Positions 282-63,592 of a stretch of DNA of 64,000 nucleotides are shown piece by piece. The notes below the pieces were generated by a model, which made no database searches, was not told the DNA's origin, and saw only the letters and a program-made list of their open reading frames with translations. Where the stretch lies: assembly GCA_030264375.1 (NCBI GenBank), contig JASCQW010000112.1, forward strand, positions 35,053,178 to 35,117,177. Reading direction: 5' to 3'. The stretch comes from Carcharhinus longimanus (lineage: Eukaryota). Position numbers and translations under genes: made by a program. Each line of letters opens with the position of its first letter. The stretch's first letter is position 1.

Positions 282-307
282 TCAAAAGGATGGTAGTATA
301 GCAAATG

Positions 308-508
308 ATGTGGAGGTGCCAGTGTTGGACTGGGCTGGGCACAGTAAGAAGTCTCACGACACCAGGTTAAAATCCAACAGGTTTATTTGGTATCATGAGC
401 TTTCGGAGCGCTGCTCCTTCATCGGGTGAATGGACAAGGAGCTTTGCTCCAAAAGCTCATGATATCAAATAAACCTGTTGGACTTTAACCTGGTGTTGCG
501 AGACCTCT
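308..508 (-). mobile_element. Short palindromic Penelope-derived (inverted pLTR) element with degenerate hammerhead core
   Basis: ~65-bp inverted arms (345-409 / 446-510). Homologous to the PLE terminus at 48460-48568. Flanked by tagtatagca[a/g]atg direct repeats (294-307, 509-522). Confidence 0.8.
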
Positions 509-1224
509 TAGTATAGCAGATGTCAGCAGAAAATTCATTACCTTTCAAAAACAAAACTTCCCAATCTTTGTTTCTCAGATTCAAACTGTTGACCGATTCT
601 GAATGGTGTACAGTTCAGTGTTGTGGATTAATTAATTTCCACCAGGAAATACACTTATCACTGGCCAAACTCAATTAAGCTCACCCAACAATCCAAATAA
701 GGAGGCTTGCCAATTAAGTTCCTAGGCAGCACTGCTGAACACCATTGCAGAAAATTTGAAAGTTGGGTCCCTCAATCCTAAGCTGTTAAAAGGGGCTGAA
801 GGTCGTCAGATTTCTGCATCATTGATTTACTAGCAGACTGTTCCTACTGCTGCCCTTTGAAATAATTGTACTATTTCCTCTGGTATTTGATACAGTTTTT
901 CACAAGTTAGGACAGTTAGTCCTTGGGAATGTGTCAGCTGCCCCCTCACACATTGAGAAATGTTTGTATGCACTGTGTGCAATGCATCAACCATCATACA
1001 ATCCTTGTATATTAACATTAAAATTAACCGTGTTTTAGAAATAAAAGATGTGCCAGCACTTATTTTCCCAAATACCTGAGTTCTGGGAGACACTGAACCT
1101 GATATTTATAGGGAAGGGAAAGGACACCTAAAACACAGAAACAAGGAGTTCCTGTCACTACTAATGGCAGGACCTCATTATTGTTTTCTCCTGCCATTCC
1201 CCACTCAGCAGTCAACCAGTTTGA

Positions 1225-19399: not shown

Positions 19400-20071
19400 C
19401 ACTGTGAAAGTCATGAACATAGCCCAGTCCATCACGCAAACCAGCCTCCCATCCATTGACTCTGTCTACACTTCCCAGAAAAACAGCCAGTATAATCAAG
19501 AACCCCGCAGTCCAGACATTCTCTCTTCCACTTTCTTCCATAAGGATAAGATACAATAGTCTGAGGACACATACCAACCAACTCAAGAACAGCTTCTTCC
19601 CTGCTGTCATCAGACTTTTGAATGGACCTATCTTGTATTAAGTTGATCTTTCTCTGTACCCTGGCTATGACTGTAACATTATATTCTTCACTCTCTCCTT
19701 TCCTTCTTTATGGACAGTATGCTTTGTCTGTATAGCACTTAAGAAACAATACTTTTCATGGTATACTAATACATGTGACAATAATAAATCAAATCAAATA
19801 CCGAATTATCATTTTATAAAGAATATTGGAGGATATAGAAATGATAGAGGTGCCTTGTTTAAGGTATCAAACTTTTGAATGATCCTATCATGTTAAGCTG
19901 ATCTTTCTCTTCATCCAATCGTTAACTGCAACATTATATTCTACACCCTATCCTTTCCTTCTCTTCTATATACGTTATGAACGGTATGTTCTGTCTGTAT
20001 AGCGCAAGAAACAATACTTTTCGCTGTATTCCAATACATGTGACAATAACAAGTCAACTCAATTCAATTCA
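19400..20071 (+). mobile_element. Rex1/Babar-like LINE 3' end (19400-19799) plus a second copy of its 3'UTR (19880-20071)
   Basis: TNQLKNSFFPAVIRLLN C-terminus; tail tacatgtgacaataataaatcaaatc is present twice. Confidence 0.7.
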
Positions 20072-34362: not shown

Positions 34363-34538
34363 GGTCCAAAGATGTGTAGGTTAGGTTGATTGGCCATGCT
34401 AAATTGATCCTTTGTGCCAAGGGGATTAGCAGGGTAAATACGTGGGATTACAGAGATGGAGCCTGGGTGAGATTGTGTCGGTGCAGACTCAATGGGCCAA
34501 ATGGCCTTTTTCTGCACTGTAATGAATCTATGAATCTA
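34363..34538 (+). mobile_element. 5'-truncated HE1-type SINE
   Basis: V-domain plus tail. Confidence 0.85.
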
Positions 34539-34669
34539 AAACGTCAATTCTGATCTATCCACCTCAAACTGCATTCAATTGTCAAACAATGACTATAAAC
34601 TAATTACTAAATAAATATGATTTTTGCTGCACTATGCGCTGGGTTTTCATTTGGAAGCAAAAGTGAATT

Positions 34670-35193
34670 TTCATAGAATCATAGAATCCCTGCAGTGCAG
34701 AAGGAGACCATTTGGCCCATCAAGTCTGCACCAACCAGGATTCCACCCAGGCCTTATTCCTGTAACCCCGCATATTTACCTTGCTAATTCCCTGATACTA
34801 AGGGACAATTTAGCATGGCCAATCAACCTAACCCACTTACCTTTGGACTATGTGAGGAAACCGGAGCACCTGGAGNNNNNNNNNNNNNNNNNNNNNNNNN
34901 NNNNNNNNNNNNNNNNNNNNNNNNNNNNNNNNNNNNNNNNNNNNNNNNNNNNNNNNNNNNNNNNNNNNNNNNNNNCCCTCAAACCTATGCATCTCAGGCA
35001 ATTTTTAGCATGACCAATCAACCTCACTCACACATCTTTGGACTGTGGGAGGATACTAGAGCACCCGGAGGAAACCCACGCAAGACATGAGGAGAATGTG
35101 CAAACTCCACACAGATGGCGGCCCAAGCTGGGAATCGAACCTGGGTCCCTGGAGCTGTGAAGCAGCAGTGCTAACCGCTGTGCCACCGTGCCA
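34670..35193 (-). mobile_element. HE1-type SINE(s) spanning N gap
   Basis: V-domain present on both sides of the gap. Confidence 0.85.
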
Positions 35194-42445: not shown

Positions 42446-42980
42446 TGATTATTACTTAAAGTATAGGTTTGAGAATGCCACAAAGTGGTGGGGTGCAGAA
42501 CCGATAACTCCATACCTTTCCCCACTCCTCTGACATCCAAAGTTTACCATATGATGTTGTCTTCAAAGTCAAATGTGCCGTGGGTTACATTTGGTGTTAG
42601 GGGTGGCAACAAGAGAAAATTGGTGCCATGAAGTTTTCCTGTGGAGAGAAGATATCTAATGGTTGCATATTTTTAAACAAAAGTTAAAAGGAGGAATAAT
42701 GATTGCAACATCCACTCCTGTTTTGCAAATGTTCTCAAAATGTTTGGTTTCTTCACCTTAGCACCTTCTGTTGTTCACTTTTATGGGTAGATGTCTTAAA
42801 AGCCAACAAATATCACCAGTTACAATAGGAGACCAATGTTTATTTAATAAAAAAACTACTTGTACATTTCAGCCATTTTATTACTACCACACGTAAAACA
42901 ACATCATTTCCAGTTTCTTAGGTATTTGCTAGAAACATGTCAAATGCACAATCAATAGAGTTTCTTTTTAATTCTTGATA

Positions 42981-43210
42981 AGAGGTTTCACAACACCAGG
43001 TTAAAATCCAACATGTTTATTTGGTAGCACGAGCTTTTGGAGCAGTGCTCCTTCATCAGGTGAATGATGACCTGATGAAAGAGCAGCACTCAGCTGCTGA
43101 AGGACAGCACTCCAAACGCCCGTGATACCAAATAAACCTGTTGGACTTTAACCTAGTGTTGAGACTTTTTACTGTGCCCACCCCAGTCCAATGCTGGCAT
43201 CTCCACATCA
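42981..43210. mobile_element. Short palindromic Penelope-derived element (copy 2)
   Basis: Inverted arms homologous to 308-508. Flanking direct repeats tttttaattcttgata (42965-42980) and tttttaaatcttaata (43211-43226). Confidence 0.8.
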
Positions 43211-44303: not shown

Positions 44304-44323
44304 AGTTTTCAAATCTTCTCTCA

Positions 44324-44409
44324 GAACGCTTCACGAATTTGCACGTCATCCTTGCGCAGGGGCCATGTGTTCACTGTATTGCTCCAATTTTAGTATATGT
44401 GCTGTCGAA
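44324..44409 (-). pseudogene. RNU6: U6 snRNA pseudogene
   Basis: Reverse complement TTCGACAGCACATATACTAAAATTGGAGCAATACAGTGAACACATGGCCCCTGCGCAAGGATGACGTGCAAATTCGTGAAGCGTTC aligns to U6. ACAGAGA box mutated, internal deletion, both ends truncated. Confidence 0.93.
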
Positions 44410-47400
44410 ATTATTTCTGGTCTTTTATGAAATTGTTTGATACATCTAGTATCAAACAGTTACACAAAAGAATAGAAATAGATACAAATAATGGAACCAG
44501 ATGCAATAAATTTGCTAGATTACCACGTCAAAGACAAGTTGATTTTCATTTACCGGCATTTAAACTCTGTTAAAGTGCAAAATGTACAGTGCCTTTAGAG
44601 AGATAAGGGGAACCTGACAAAATAATAAATAAGATGGAGTATATTTGCAATCATGTCAATTGTGAACTATGTGAGATACCAGAAAGTTGCATCATTTTAT
44701 GGTGGTTAAAGGTATTGTAATTGTTACAATAATCACCTGAATATTTTGGTCAGTGTGTAATCATCTGGCTTAGCTCCATGAGCAATATCTTGACATTAAG
44801 GAATTTCATTGGATCCTCGTCATTAGACAAGGCTAGTATATTTTTAGATCTGCAAATTGTTTTTCATTGGAGAGCCAATATTTTACATCTTCTTATTGTG
44901 CAATGAATACAGCATTTTAGCTCCGGTGTGTTCGATAATAGAGTACAAGGACTTCTTTAAACCATTTTAACAGTTCAGTAAAGCGTAGCCTCCACTTTTA
45001 ATCTAGGTTACAGACCAGTAACAAGGTCAACCAACAGGACATCAAATCACTGATCCAATCTTCTTCAGAGGTGACAACAGATGTTGCATGACGGTGAAAA
45101 GAAAATACTTCAGCAGAATGCCCTGCCTTCAAAAAAAGGGGTAAACACTCCTACTGTGTATTTTTGTTATATTGAAAAGGAATACCCATTGTTGGGCAAA
45201 ATCAGAGCATCTCCTGGGCTTTGCAGTGTGTAATTCCGTGCATTCACTGTGTAATGTATTCACTGAGTGGCTATATCACCAAGACATGGGTCTGAAAGTG
45301 AGCAGCTGCACAGTAACAGATGGCTCCTTTCTCAACTGGAAACAATTCCACTAGCAACATTTTAAATAAACTCAAGTACATTACTGCATGGACCAGAAAA
45401 GAACTGCCCAAAGAGAGTCAAATAGAATTTAACAAAATGGGATTTTTCACTCATATTTGAGAACAGCCATAAAGCAATTTTCTGCAGAGTAAATTTTACT
45501 CTTAGAGAAATGGCAACGAAACATGTCACTTTGCAAATTGCTCCACAAGTAAATGTATTACAATCGTCAATCACTGATGAAAGGACTGTGGGATGTTACC
45601 TTGGTCTCAGCACCCAAGATGAGGGAGGGGAAAGACATGACAGGCTCCTGACTGCTAGCTAGTGACTCAGACTGCAAAAATGCATCCATACAAGTACACA
45701 ATGTAATACACAGTCCCATAGTCAAAATAAATCTAGAAGAACTGACAGTTTATTGAAATTGCCAGAAGACAGAACTGTATATCAGTATGTGTATTAACTG
45801 TATGTTATTCTCTTCAGAAGAGAATAATAAGAAATGGAACAAAATTGGGATTTTATATCAAGAAGACCGTACTGAAACAAAACAGAAAATGCTTAGTTTA
45901 GATTAAACAAATTTAAGCTGAATAGTTTTGGCTTTCTTAACCTCATTCTATAAGGAATCAGAATAGTCAAATGTAAACTTTTAAGAGGAGGTTGTTTAAA
46001 GGTAAATTGTAGCACAGTATTCCTATATCTGTTGTGCTATCCCGAAGAAAAGAGTAAAAAGGCACTTTCACTAGGGATATGATTTGATCTGTATGAATAA
46101 AAGAACAGATTTAAGGAACAGCAAAGCCTTTTTCAAATAAAACATTTTCCACCTGGCTTCTTATTCCCTTTTTGTTATTCTCATTTCCAGCGAGCCAGCT
46201 GTTAATGGGGGTTGGGATTGTGGTTTTTTTAAATGTCTGTGGGAGCAGCTGTCCCCTATGTTATACAACAATTGTGCCAACGATAGTGGAGCACCTTGTA
46301 ATCTGCAAAAAGATTCAAACAGAATCTATCAGGCTCCAACCGAAGCAGGTCCTTCAGAAAAATCAAACAGTAATCTGCACTATTTAACTGAGTGGCAAAA
46401 TTTGCTCTGCATTTATTCTGTGCTTTTTTTCAGAAAAAAATATAAACTTCTGTGCCGAATTTGTTGGAACAACCACTCAGTACTACATTCTCCAAACAAA
46501 ATGAGCGAATTTAGTTCTGGGTAAATTTTAGAAACTTCGGGCTGGCTAACAGTTGAGAGGTCTGTACACACAGAGCAATCTAACGTACACAGCATTGACA
46601 GGGACATGAACAATATTCAAAATAAATAATATTGGGGACAAGGGAGCTCAAAACTATTCCACTCAGTTTGTAAATGGGAAAATTAAATCCACAGAAAGTG
46701 GTGATTTGCAGGTGTAGAAATCCATTTACACCACGGATTTGCAGCAGACTCAATAGGAAATAAGTGACAAATGCAACACAGTCAGATGAGCCAAGTGGAT
46801 ATCAGTGATTTACTACAAAATCCATCTTTTAATTTTGCTATCCTCCCTCCTTCCACACAGATTATTATGCACAGATAGAGAGAGGAGAGAGAGAAATATA
46901 TAGGGATAGCAATATATGTTTATTTTCTAAGCATTAACTGGGCAAACAGCACTACTATCAACTAAGCAGTCACTGCAATTCTAGTTTATGACTGCCCTCA
47001 ATTTGTATACAACACTGAAATGTCATTCACATTTATCACAGCTAATATCCAATTCCATTCACACCAACATTCTGCAATTACAGAAGAGACAGCACAATCA
47101 ATCATGTTCTTCACTTAAAACAAGTGGATTCATACAGTTACACTTTAATAGAAGCATGTTGCATAGCAACGATTAATATATTGGTACAAGATCTCTATAT
47201 ATCGTAATACTATTTTCATATCACTGTACATTAAGTGAGTTTTCCATGAAGCAAGTAACAGAGGTAAAGTGGAAGCAAGGGGAGAAGGAAGATGCCATTA
47301 TACTGAACACAATTCCAACAAAAGTAAATTGAACATTTAATTTTTACAATTGATAGAGTTCTGTAAAGCGAGTTTACTGTTAAACAAATCAGACTCATTA

Positions 47401-48459: not shown

Positions 48460-49610
48460 TGAGGTTGGCACAGTAAGAAGTCTCACAACACCAGATTAAA
48501 GTCCAACAGGTTTATTTGTTAGCAAACGCCACTAGCTTTCGGGGTGCTGCTCCTTCGTCAGGTGAGTGNNNNNNNNNNNNNNNNNNNNNNNNNNNNNNNN
48601 NNNNNNNNNNNNNNNNNNNNNNNNNNNNNNNNNNNNNNNNNNNNNNNNNNNNNNNNNNNNNNNNNNNNNNNNNNNNNNNNNNNNNNNNNNNNNNNNNNNN
48701 NNNNNNNNNNNNNNNNNNNNNNNNNNNNNNNNNNNNNNNNNNNNNNNNNNNNNNNNNNNNNNNNNNNNNNNNNNNNNNNNNNNNNNNNNNNNNNNNNNNN
48801 NNNNNNNNNNNNNNNNNNNNNNNNNNNNNNNNNNNNNNNNNNNNNNNNNNNNNNNNNNNNNNNNNNNNNNNNNNNNNNNNNNNNNNNNNNNNNNNNNNNN
48901 NNNNNNNNNNNNNNNNNNNNNNNNNNNNNNNNNNNNNNNNNNNNNNNNNNNNNNNNNNNNNNNNNNNNNNNNNNNNNNNNNNNNNNNNNNNNNNNNNNNN
49001 NNNNNNNNNNNNNNNNNNNNNNNNNNNNNNNNNNNNNNNNNNNNNNNNNNNNNNNNNNNNNNNNNNNNNNNNNNNNNNNNNNNNNNNNNNNNNNNNNNNN
49101 NNNNNNNNNNNNNNNNNNNNNNNNNNNNNNNNNNNNNNNNNNNNNNNNNNNNNNNNNNNCAGCACGTCTTGCAAAGGTTGCTGTGGCAGGTTTGTGTGGT
49201 GTCGTGGTCACTGTCCTCCATATACACAGGATCTGCTCCGTATACACAAGATGAGGAGGATTGCAACAGACATTTCCAGATGCTGAAAGATGCTCTCAGA
49301 AGAACAGGATATGGCGCTCGACTCATCGATTGACAGTTTTGACTCGCCACAGCGACAGACCGCACCAACCTCCTCAGAAGACAAACACGGGACACGGTGG
49401 ACAGAGTACCCTTCATCATCCGGTACTTCCCCGGAGCGGAGAAGCTATGACATCTCCTCTGATACCTTCAACACGTCATTGATGAAGACGAACATCTTGC
49501 CAGGGTCATCCCCACACCCCCACTTCTTGCCTTCAAACAACCGCACAACCTCAAACAGACCATTATCCGCAGCAAACAACGCAGCCTTTAGGAGAACAGT
49601 GACCACAACA
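48460..49610 (-). mobile_element. Penelope-like retroelement, 5'-truncated, with inverted 5' segment
   Basis: pLTR at left. Minus-strand DSDHDTTQTCHSNLCKTC (Cys-rich linker preceding GIY-YIG). Plus-strand segment 49215-49610 encodes the frameshifted RT C-terminus (..MLKDALRRTGYGARLID..). Confidence 0.85.
48530..48564 (-). ncRNA. Minimal type I hammerhead ribozyme motif (PLE pLTR)
   Basis: CAC-CUGACGA-A-GGAGCAGCACCCC-GAAA-GC-UA-GUG: intact core boxes, short helix I, palindromic AGCU in place of helix III; helix II has mismatches. Confidence 0.6.
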
Positions 49611-63432: not shown

Positions 63433-63592
63433 ACAAAAAGTCTACGGATAGAAAGTCACTATTAAGAAATTGCAAGTTTAATAACTGCAGAATTACATAC
63501 ATGTCTATGAAGTATATGAAAGATGTATATAATTCTGCAGTTACTAAACTTGCAATTTCCTAAATGTGACTTTTCATCGGTAGGCTTTTTGT
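63433..63592. repeat. 160-bp imperfect palindrome (~70-bp arms)
   Basis: Left arm acaaaaagtctacggatagaaagtcac..gaaattgcaagtttaataactgcagaattacatacat; right arm is its reverse complement with few mismatches. Confidence 0.92.

Follow-up and report, generated by a model that had tools for sequence, protein, structure and literature searches.

The window analysed here is a stretch of 64,000 nucleotides of Carcharhinus longimanus DNA, and near its left end lies a 205-base unit (positions 306–510) built from three parts: a Penelope tail of 39 bp, a pLTR arm of 90 bp and an inverted arm of 75 bp. This is the known end layout of a Penelope-like retrotransposon (PLE), without the ORF. The element sense is the minus strand. 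The tail (306–344, minus strand) has outer start site A at its end, and in uncut copies the ORF start codon comes directly after it. The long arm, which is the pLTR at arm positions 1–90, occupies 345–434 on the minus strand; it carries AATAAA, a candidate poly(A) signal present in 103 of 127 arms, at 382–387 (minus strand) and a minimal type I hammerhead motif, with the layout given in the available text of PMC4209133, at 394–428 (minus strand). At the inner junction (429–435, minus strand) the long arm ends with position 90 (434), and one base (435) lies outside either arm. The inverted arm (436–510, plus strand) runs from position 75 to position 1, lacks both the tail and the 5′ half of the hammerhead core, and has outer start site B as its outer end. 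Arms are numbered throughout so that position 1 is window 345 and position p is window 344 + p; on this scale AATAAA is at 38–43, the predicted cut is between 53 and 52, the hammerhead core is at 75–81 and the tail extends from −38 to 0.

The unit is bounded by direct repeats of at most 14 bp, at 294–307 and 509–522 (both plus strand), which are identical at 13 of 14 positions, as the preliminary description of this DNA had reported. Because the two bases at each inner edge (306–307 on the left, 509–510 on the right) double as the ends of the element, only 10 bp of the target-site duplication (296–305 and 511–520) are unambiguous. The inverted arms, earlier put at about 65 bp, prove slightly longer, with 345–419 and 436–510 identical at 66 of 75 positions, and the unit is asymmetric in that the 39 bp of 306–344 fall outside the inverted repeat. 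The folding z-score of the hairpin is −17.5, none of 200 shuffles being equally stable. This copy differs from the majority sequence of the family by about 7% and 11%. Contigs from two further organisms span its right flank and enter the arm (from 483 and 485), so that it is likely to be old and shared.

A second hairpin in the window (42979–43210) lies in the opposite orientation, on the plus strand, and is flanked by a 16-bp duplication with two mismatches. Its centre is different; the arms reach positions 88 and 92 and are separated by a 16-bp insert.

The window has several other repeats and hairpins. A different high-copy repeat at 160–281, 83% identical to 19487–19605, ends 12 bp to the left of the duplication; contigs of other organisms cover it deeply, and we take it to resemble a LINE 3′ end. 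A 485-bp fold-back of a SINE-like repeat (34364–34848) lies beside an N gap, an AT-rich hairpin of 160 bp (63433–63592) gives weak matches to miRNA families, and a U6 snRNA copy at 44315–44414 (minus strand; 55 bits, degenerate 5′ stem), which adjoins a SINE-like repeat, is likely a pseudogene.

The hammerhead motif

The hammerhead was originally read on the minus strand with a perfect helix II and a U-to-C change, and both features are borne out: the motif lies at 428–394, helix II has 5 bp, and the change is U4C, at 424. Helix I is formed by 428–426 and 396–394, the core occupies 425–419 and is followed by an extra A at 418, helix II spans 417–405 and the GAAA lies at 404–401, with the predicted cut between 397 and 396. 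A second lesion, beyond that described earlier, affects helix I, whose first pair (426/396) is a C-A mismatch. An Rfam scan of the window did not report the hammerhead at E ≤ 1, and for the hairpins gave just weak miRNA-like matches.

The metazoan PLE pLTR hammerheads described in the available text of PMC4209133 have a type I core with an extra base between 9 and 10.1, a two-base palindromic helix III and a long helix II, and are mostly single and variable; in Schistosoma, pairs occur 100–700 bp apart on opposite strands. The motif at 394–428 shares this layout and differs from it by the U4C change and the helix I mismatch. Cartilaginous fish are not named in the available part of that source.

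The U4C change is not private to 306–510, since C stands at that site in 7 of 73 arms. According to the accessible portion of PMC3088659, it considerably reduces activity in vitro and still allows viroid infectivity. The family majority has the full hammerhead core, and core, GAAA and U16.1 are all intact in 21 of the 73 arms that span the motif. When the structure of the whole hairpin RNA is predicted, helix II has a pairing probability of 1.6e-8, and the hammerhead is predicted to be locked and unable to fold within it. Given this value together with the U4C change and the helix I mismatch, the transcript of 306–510 is predicted not to cleave itself. No selection on the ribozyme after insertion was apparent in the right arms, where core columns are kept no better than other arm columns (0.934 vs 0.934).

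In the majority sequence of the family, the antisense of the hammerhead 5′ half (423–431 on the plus strand of the window, considered across all copies) matches the splice-donor consensus. Judged from this sequence, intronic copies could serve as cryptic splice donors.

The parent element

Unit 306–510 had been matched to the terminus of a coding Penelope element at 48460. The terminal match stands, at 81% over 102 columns to 48467–48568, but the link to coding sequence crosses a 591-base N gap. The segment at 48467–48568 (minus strand) is a pLTR end, lacking the tail, that belongs to a longer but broken copy of the PLE; it runs into this gap (48569–49159), beyond which broken coding pieces lie in an inverted arrangement at 49160–49609 (49160–49224 on the minus strand, 49220–49609 on the plus strand). 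Across 34 aa these pieces are 76% identical to the L065 ORF, and the spacing from pLTR to coding sequence, ∼640 bp in the window, agrees with the 611–636 bp of the ungapped copies L062 and L065. As the coding pieces contain stops, the PLE at 48467–49609 cannot be the donor as it stands. This copy also has an internal inversion, both pieces meeting at one coding position as in L1 twin priming.

A search with the coding pieces of the window gave 20 loci, most of which have the same pLTR ∼600 bp downstream, ∼200 bp beyond the end of the ORF; several have it inverted upstream as well, and the tail is found on one end only. The parent element thus follows the order RT ORF, about 200 bp of 3′ UTR, hammerhead pLTR, tail and ORF start, and copies that continue beyond the tail enter the ORF start directly. 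Since the pLTR lies after the ORF and also directly before its start, pLTR and tail together constitute the 3′ end of the element and also its 5′ leader. An RT domain (PF00078, E 2.6e-8) is present in L077, which has the same pLTR downstream. The C-terminal region is nearest to a GIY-YIG cluster (Atlas score 0.96; PF01541 on 33% of its members); a Pfam search of five ORF pieces did not find GIY-YIG at E ≤ 1, and a PDB sequence search with the RT piece gave no match. The proposed derivation of the unit from a PLE pLTR with a minimal hammerhead is upheld.

The closest parallel in geometry is the Poseidon element PAc of Anolis carolinensis, for which the available text of PMC11167929 gives a cut at +26 from the AUG and a start of reverse transcription at +111–118. 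It describes two RT start sites that flank the tail, cutting and extension of both strands, and a predicted dimer. Counted from the AUG inside the hammerhead core, the predicted cut of the shark family lies at +26 and its tail end at +117, so that the two are alike in their geometry, and it is this match of end geometry that suggests placement in the Poseidon clade. They differ in that the long ORF of the shark family appears to begin right after the tail, whereas that of PAc begins in the hammerhead (PMC11167929). Inverted arms and inner ends are not treated in the available part of that paper.

Outer starts, inner ends and centre junctions

In the 2.68-Gb assembly, unit 306–510 gave 5,498 first-look candidates. 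A 45-base probe gave 606 exact matches, and 90 loci were taken from the 100 matches listed. As a random sample, sixty evenly chosen 10-kb stretches from large scaffolds (529 kb without N) contained 34 insertions, comprising 12 hairpins, 21 single arms and one other; five of the single arms adjoin gaps, and a few have short inverted remnants missed by the script. The density of 64 insertions per Mb extrapolates, from these large scaffolds, to ∼150,000 insertions and ∼50,000 hairpins genome-wide. The 90 probe-picked loci comprise 37 gap-free hairpins, 23 that stopped with no inverted arm called nearby, 22 that enter N gaps and 8 that continue beyond 200 nt; the 22 in gaps mean that long palindromes may be under-counted. 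A minority of hairpins (L053, L054 and L263) have the tail on both arms.

Duplications scoring at least 8 flank 40 of 58 hairpins, compared with 1.75% of 400 shuffled flank pairs. The earlier view is upheld both on the long duplications and on retroposition, rather than cut-and-paste, as the origin of the insertions. The duplications measure 8–17 bp, 26 of the 40 being 11–14 bp. A cut preference for ATT/AAT like that of PAc is not clear among the 40, and no empty site was present among the joints listed from three other DNA-like runs. A class II origin, as a MITE, was considered and rejected on the 39-bp tail outside the repeat, a right end that varies by 0–7 nt and the range of duplication lengths. 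Nor did a literature search support a link to the crocodilian Chompy repeats.

The overall arrangement resembles Penelope/Poseidon-type EN+ PLE units, which have a pLTR, an adjacent inverted 5′-truncated pLTR and a tail at one end; such units have a tail of 30–40 bp and duplications of 8–10 bp (PMC3846280, PMC8557442 and PMC8969392, each available in part). In the described units the ORF is present, whereas here, in about a third of insertions, it is absent and the pLTR arms meet directly; the hairpin duplications, mostly 11–14 bp, are also longer. The available text of these three accounts contains no ORF-less hairpin class of this abundance.

The outer ends fall at two sites, 33–40 nt apart. 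In the random 529 kb, 22 of 47 ungapped outer starts lie at −38 to −31 and 20 of 47 at −4 to +2, and both sites recur as loose ends in contigs from two further organisms. The inner ends, by contrast, fall mainly at one. Among arms at risk, 26 of 56 stop at 80–89 and 9 of 29 at 90–99, with 0–4 per bin thereafter, hairpins and solo arms alike; in the independent random sample 21 of 28 inner ends are at 80–95 and 1 of 7 is farther on. The mode is position 87 (window 431), with 36 ends at 86–91 and 0–2 per position beyond, and opposite-strand joints in contigs of other organisms are found at positions 85–89. The preliminary description had looked to heterogeneous lengths and ends as the mark of merely random truncated or inverted PLE insertions. 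Lengths and centre junctions are indeed heterogeneous, but the outer ends cluster at two sites and the inner ends favour one.

Of 91 long copies drawn from all fetched loci, 56 have a TATA that starts 29–33 nt upstream of position 87, and 22 have no TATA; because the copies belong to one family, they count as a single observation rather than as 56. Pol II starts lie at such a distance, ∼30 nt, from their TATA. The sharp inner stop and this spacing together suggest that the arms are cDNAs that ran off the 5′ end of the RNA, and we lean slightly towards the RNA start as the cause of the stop. In A. vaga Pen2a, a TATA and an initiator-like motif are found at the head of the pLTR (available text of PMC3846280).

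Random 5′ truncation after priming in the 3′ pLTR would account for the arms differently: long inverted arms would have been trimmed, lost or left unassembled, and the peak at ∼87 would be an effect of survival or assembly. Truncation is the standard description for PLEs (PMC8557442, available in part), N gaps lie inside the arm at 22 of the 90 probe-picked loci, and longer arms do occur (120/116 and 163/173). The peak is nevertheless sharp and agrees with the TATA spacing, and palindrome-free solo arms share the same stop, with the duplication close by in four of them (L038, L040, L101 and L105). We therefore consider this explanation unlikely. The ribozyme itself might also set the arms, either because hammerhead-cleaved RNA is the template or because the RT stalls at the folded hammerhead. 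The peak adjoins the 5′ strand of helix I, and in the probe-picked hairpins 4 of 74 arm ends are at 50–54, around the cut, but 45 of 74 are at 75–97, upstream of it. An RT travelling 3′ to 5′ would reach the helices at 50–61 and would be expected to stall there, not later, and PAc inserts uncleaved RNA in vitro (available text of PMC11167929), all of which makes a role for the ribozyme in setting the arms very improbable.

The centre of the hairpin bears on whether the family descends from a master copy. We compared 68 hairpins: the best 30 genome matches including 306–510, the second hairpin of the window, and the 37 probe-picked hairpins, which were chosen without regard to the centre. There are 65 distinct centre junctions among the 68, and in the probe-picked set all 37 are distinct and the hairpins range from 128 to 383 bp in length. 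Bases are inserted at the centre in 39 of 68 hairpins, up to 77 of them. The extra DNA between the arms amounts to 77 nt in L056, 67 nt in L092 and 61 nt in L123; that of L056 is unlike element sequence and that of L123 resembles the element 3′ UTR. C is found in 4 of 8 one-base inserts, too few to be used as an indication of a cap-templated extra C. In 24 of 68 hairpins the tail-less arm exceeds the tailed one by more than 3 nt, so that fold-back copying of one arm from the other cannot explain the pair.

If RNA transcribed from one or a few master hairpins had been processed by the hammerhead and then inserted intact, in trans, by the PLE protein, the centres would need to have eroded later to give this diversity. 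Three observations could be taken to favour such a history. The best 30 genome matches form a narrow size class (195–218 bp), which we set aside as a test of size because a full-length query selects for it. The arms of a copy agree in subfamily type, both being of one type in 37 of 41 hairpins (shuffle mean 15.9, maximum 28); the types, at least three, are each present among long copies too. There are, finally, three pairs with equal junctions where 0.8 were expected (P 0.037), but the private changes these pairs have in common number 0, 1 and 0. Microhomology of 2–3 nt, present in two of the three, may explain part of the slight excess.

Other features of the hairpins speak against a master copy. 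Arms within a copy are barely closer to each other than arms of different copies (identity 0.869 vs 0.859 in the top-hit set), copies with equal junctions have no more than one private change in common, and nothing consistently separates left arms from right arms except three variable positions, which are likely CpG sites, and one sparse three-letter column. Solo arms stop at the inner site of the hairpins, and the inverted arm is found on long coding copies as well. The A-to-G strand skew that editing of a whole-hairpin RNA would leave is absent over the 68 hairpins (71 vs 75; 2 vs 2 in 306–510 itself), and the hammerhead is predicted to be locked. No constant monomer descending from a master copy was found. 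The table of junctions largely refutes a master-hairpin family, which we regard as distinctly unlikely. The retrozyme-like, non-autonomous family moving as a unit that had been proposed for 306–510 does not hold: lengths vary, nearly all junctions are distinct, the hammerhead is predicted to be locked and there is no head-to-tail array of ribozymes.

Probable assembly of the hairpins at insertion

Each hairpin was very probably formed de novo during its own insertion, and it is likely that it was assembled there from two short cDNAs, not copied from a hairpin master. Taking the explanation as a whole, we think it probable that unit 306–510 goes back to one insertion, dead and lacking the ORF, of a PLE that is very abundant. 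A dimer of the PLE protein would nick both target strands ∼12–14 nt apart, and each target 3′ end would then prime reverse transcription inside the RNA, one at the end of the tail and the other at the pLTR boundary, in the manner of PAc in vitro. Both cDNAs would extend to the RNA 5′ end near position 87, predicted to lie ∼30 nt downstream of the TATA-like motif and a short way 5′ of the hammerhead. After trimming, end joining would link the two cDNA ends, in many cases with the addition or capture of a few bases. Because it sits between the priming sites and the inferred RNA start, the hammerhead would be a passenger.

A wider reading, which we offer more tentatively and hold somewhat less likely than its opposite, is that the hairpins represent strong-stop intermediates that became trapped and reveal how Penelope replicates, with the pLTR acting like the R-U5 of an LTR. 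The order in the pLTR would then be the RNA start at 87, the hammerhead and the poly(A) signal, followed by the tail and the start codon. Both target strands would serve as primers at internal sites of the 5′ leader, and synthesis would run to the RNA 5′ end; joining of the two run-off cDNAs would give a hairpin, and a jump of one cDNA to the 3′ repeat copy would give a long element with an inverted pLTR.

Two better-known processes offer partial parallels. In L1 twin priming, two target 3′ ends prime cDNA and an inversion results within one duplication, while retroviral minus-strand strong-stop DNA is a short cDNA that runs off the RNA 5′ end. The hairpins differ from both in that the two arms copy one stretch of template. 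Priming here would be internal and by target DNA, rather than at a poly(A) tail as in L1 or by tRNA as in retroviruses.

The non-LTR retrozymes are similar in being non-coding, in originating from a PLE pLTR, and in their type I hammerhead and long duplications (PMC7229834 and bioRxiv 10.64898/2026.07.22.740005, both available in part). The same sources describe retrozymes as head-to-tail repeats with a working ribozyme and circular RNA. Unit 306–510, in contrast, is a head-to-head pair in which the one complete motif is damaged, and there is no constant unit. The hairpin contains no head-to-tail series in which two or more hammerheads point the same way; its second arm lacks the 5′ half of the core. 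The members of the family nearest to a retrozyme are instead short head-to-tail pairs from a hotspot in the ORF, and their junctions are variable. This third break hotspot, at +86 to +118 from the ORF start, is seen in 30 loci (L201–L230) chosen with the first 86 nt of the ORF, 22 of which exit the ORF, as judged by eye, within the next 32 nt. Sixteen of these exits join pLTR, tail or 3′ UTR and six join flank DNA; further cases are L142, L160, L165, L166 and L169. Among direct tandems that contain the first 90 nt of the ORF, the joins to pLTR or 3′ UTR are widely spread and do not fall mainly at 87, which tells against the run-off explanation.

Both the layout and the ribozyme motif are already known for PLEs, and the value of the present observations is in the population pattern. 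A search of mainly open-access literature found no account of ORF-less PLE hairpins in cartilaginous fish and no strong-stop or run-off model for PLEs. For annotation, the hairpins, roughly 50,000 by extrapolation, carry the risk of being mistaken for MITEs or miRNA precursors.

The origin of the inverted pLTRs and tails of PLEs is named as an open question in the available text of PMC8557442, and self-priming on an antisense template has been proposed (PMC3846280, in the part available). What is added here is a counted pattern, with two outer starts, one inner stop at the predicted RNA start, and arms that one fold-back cannot give, which makes the question of PLE integration directly testable in the PAc in vitro system. 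If the strong-stop model is true, tens of thousands of hairpins would map the two priming sites, the 12–14-nt stagger and the RNA start at base resolution, and a single model would account for both the inverted pLTRs and the tails of such elements in general.
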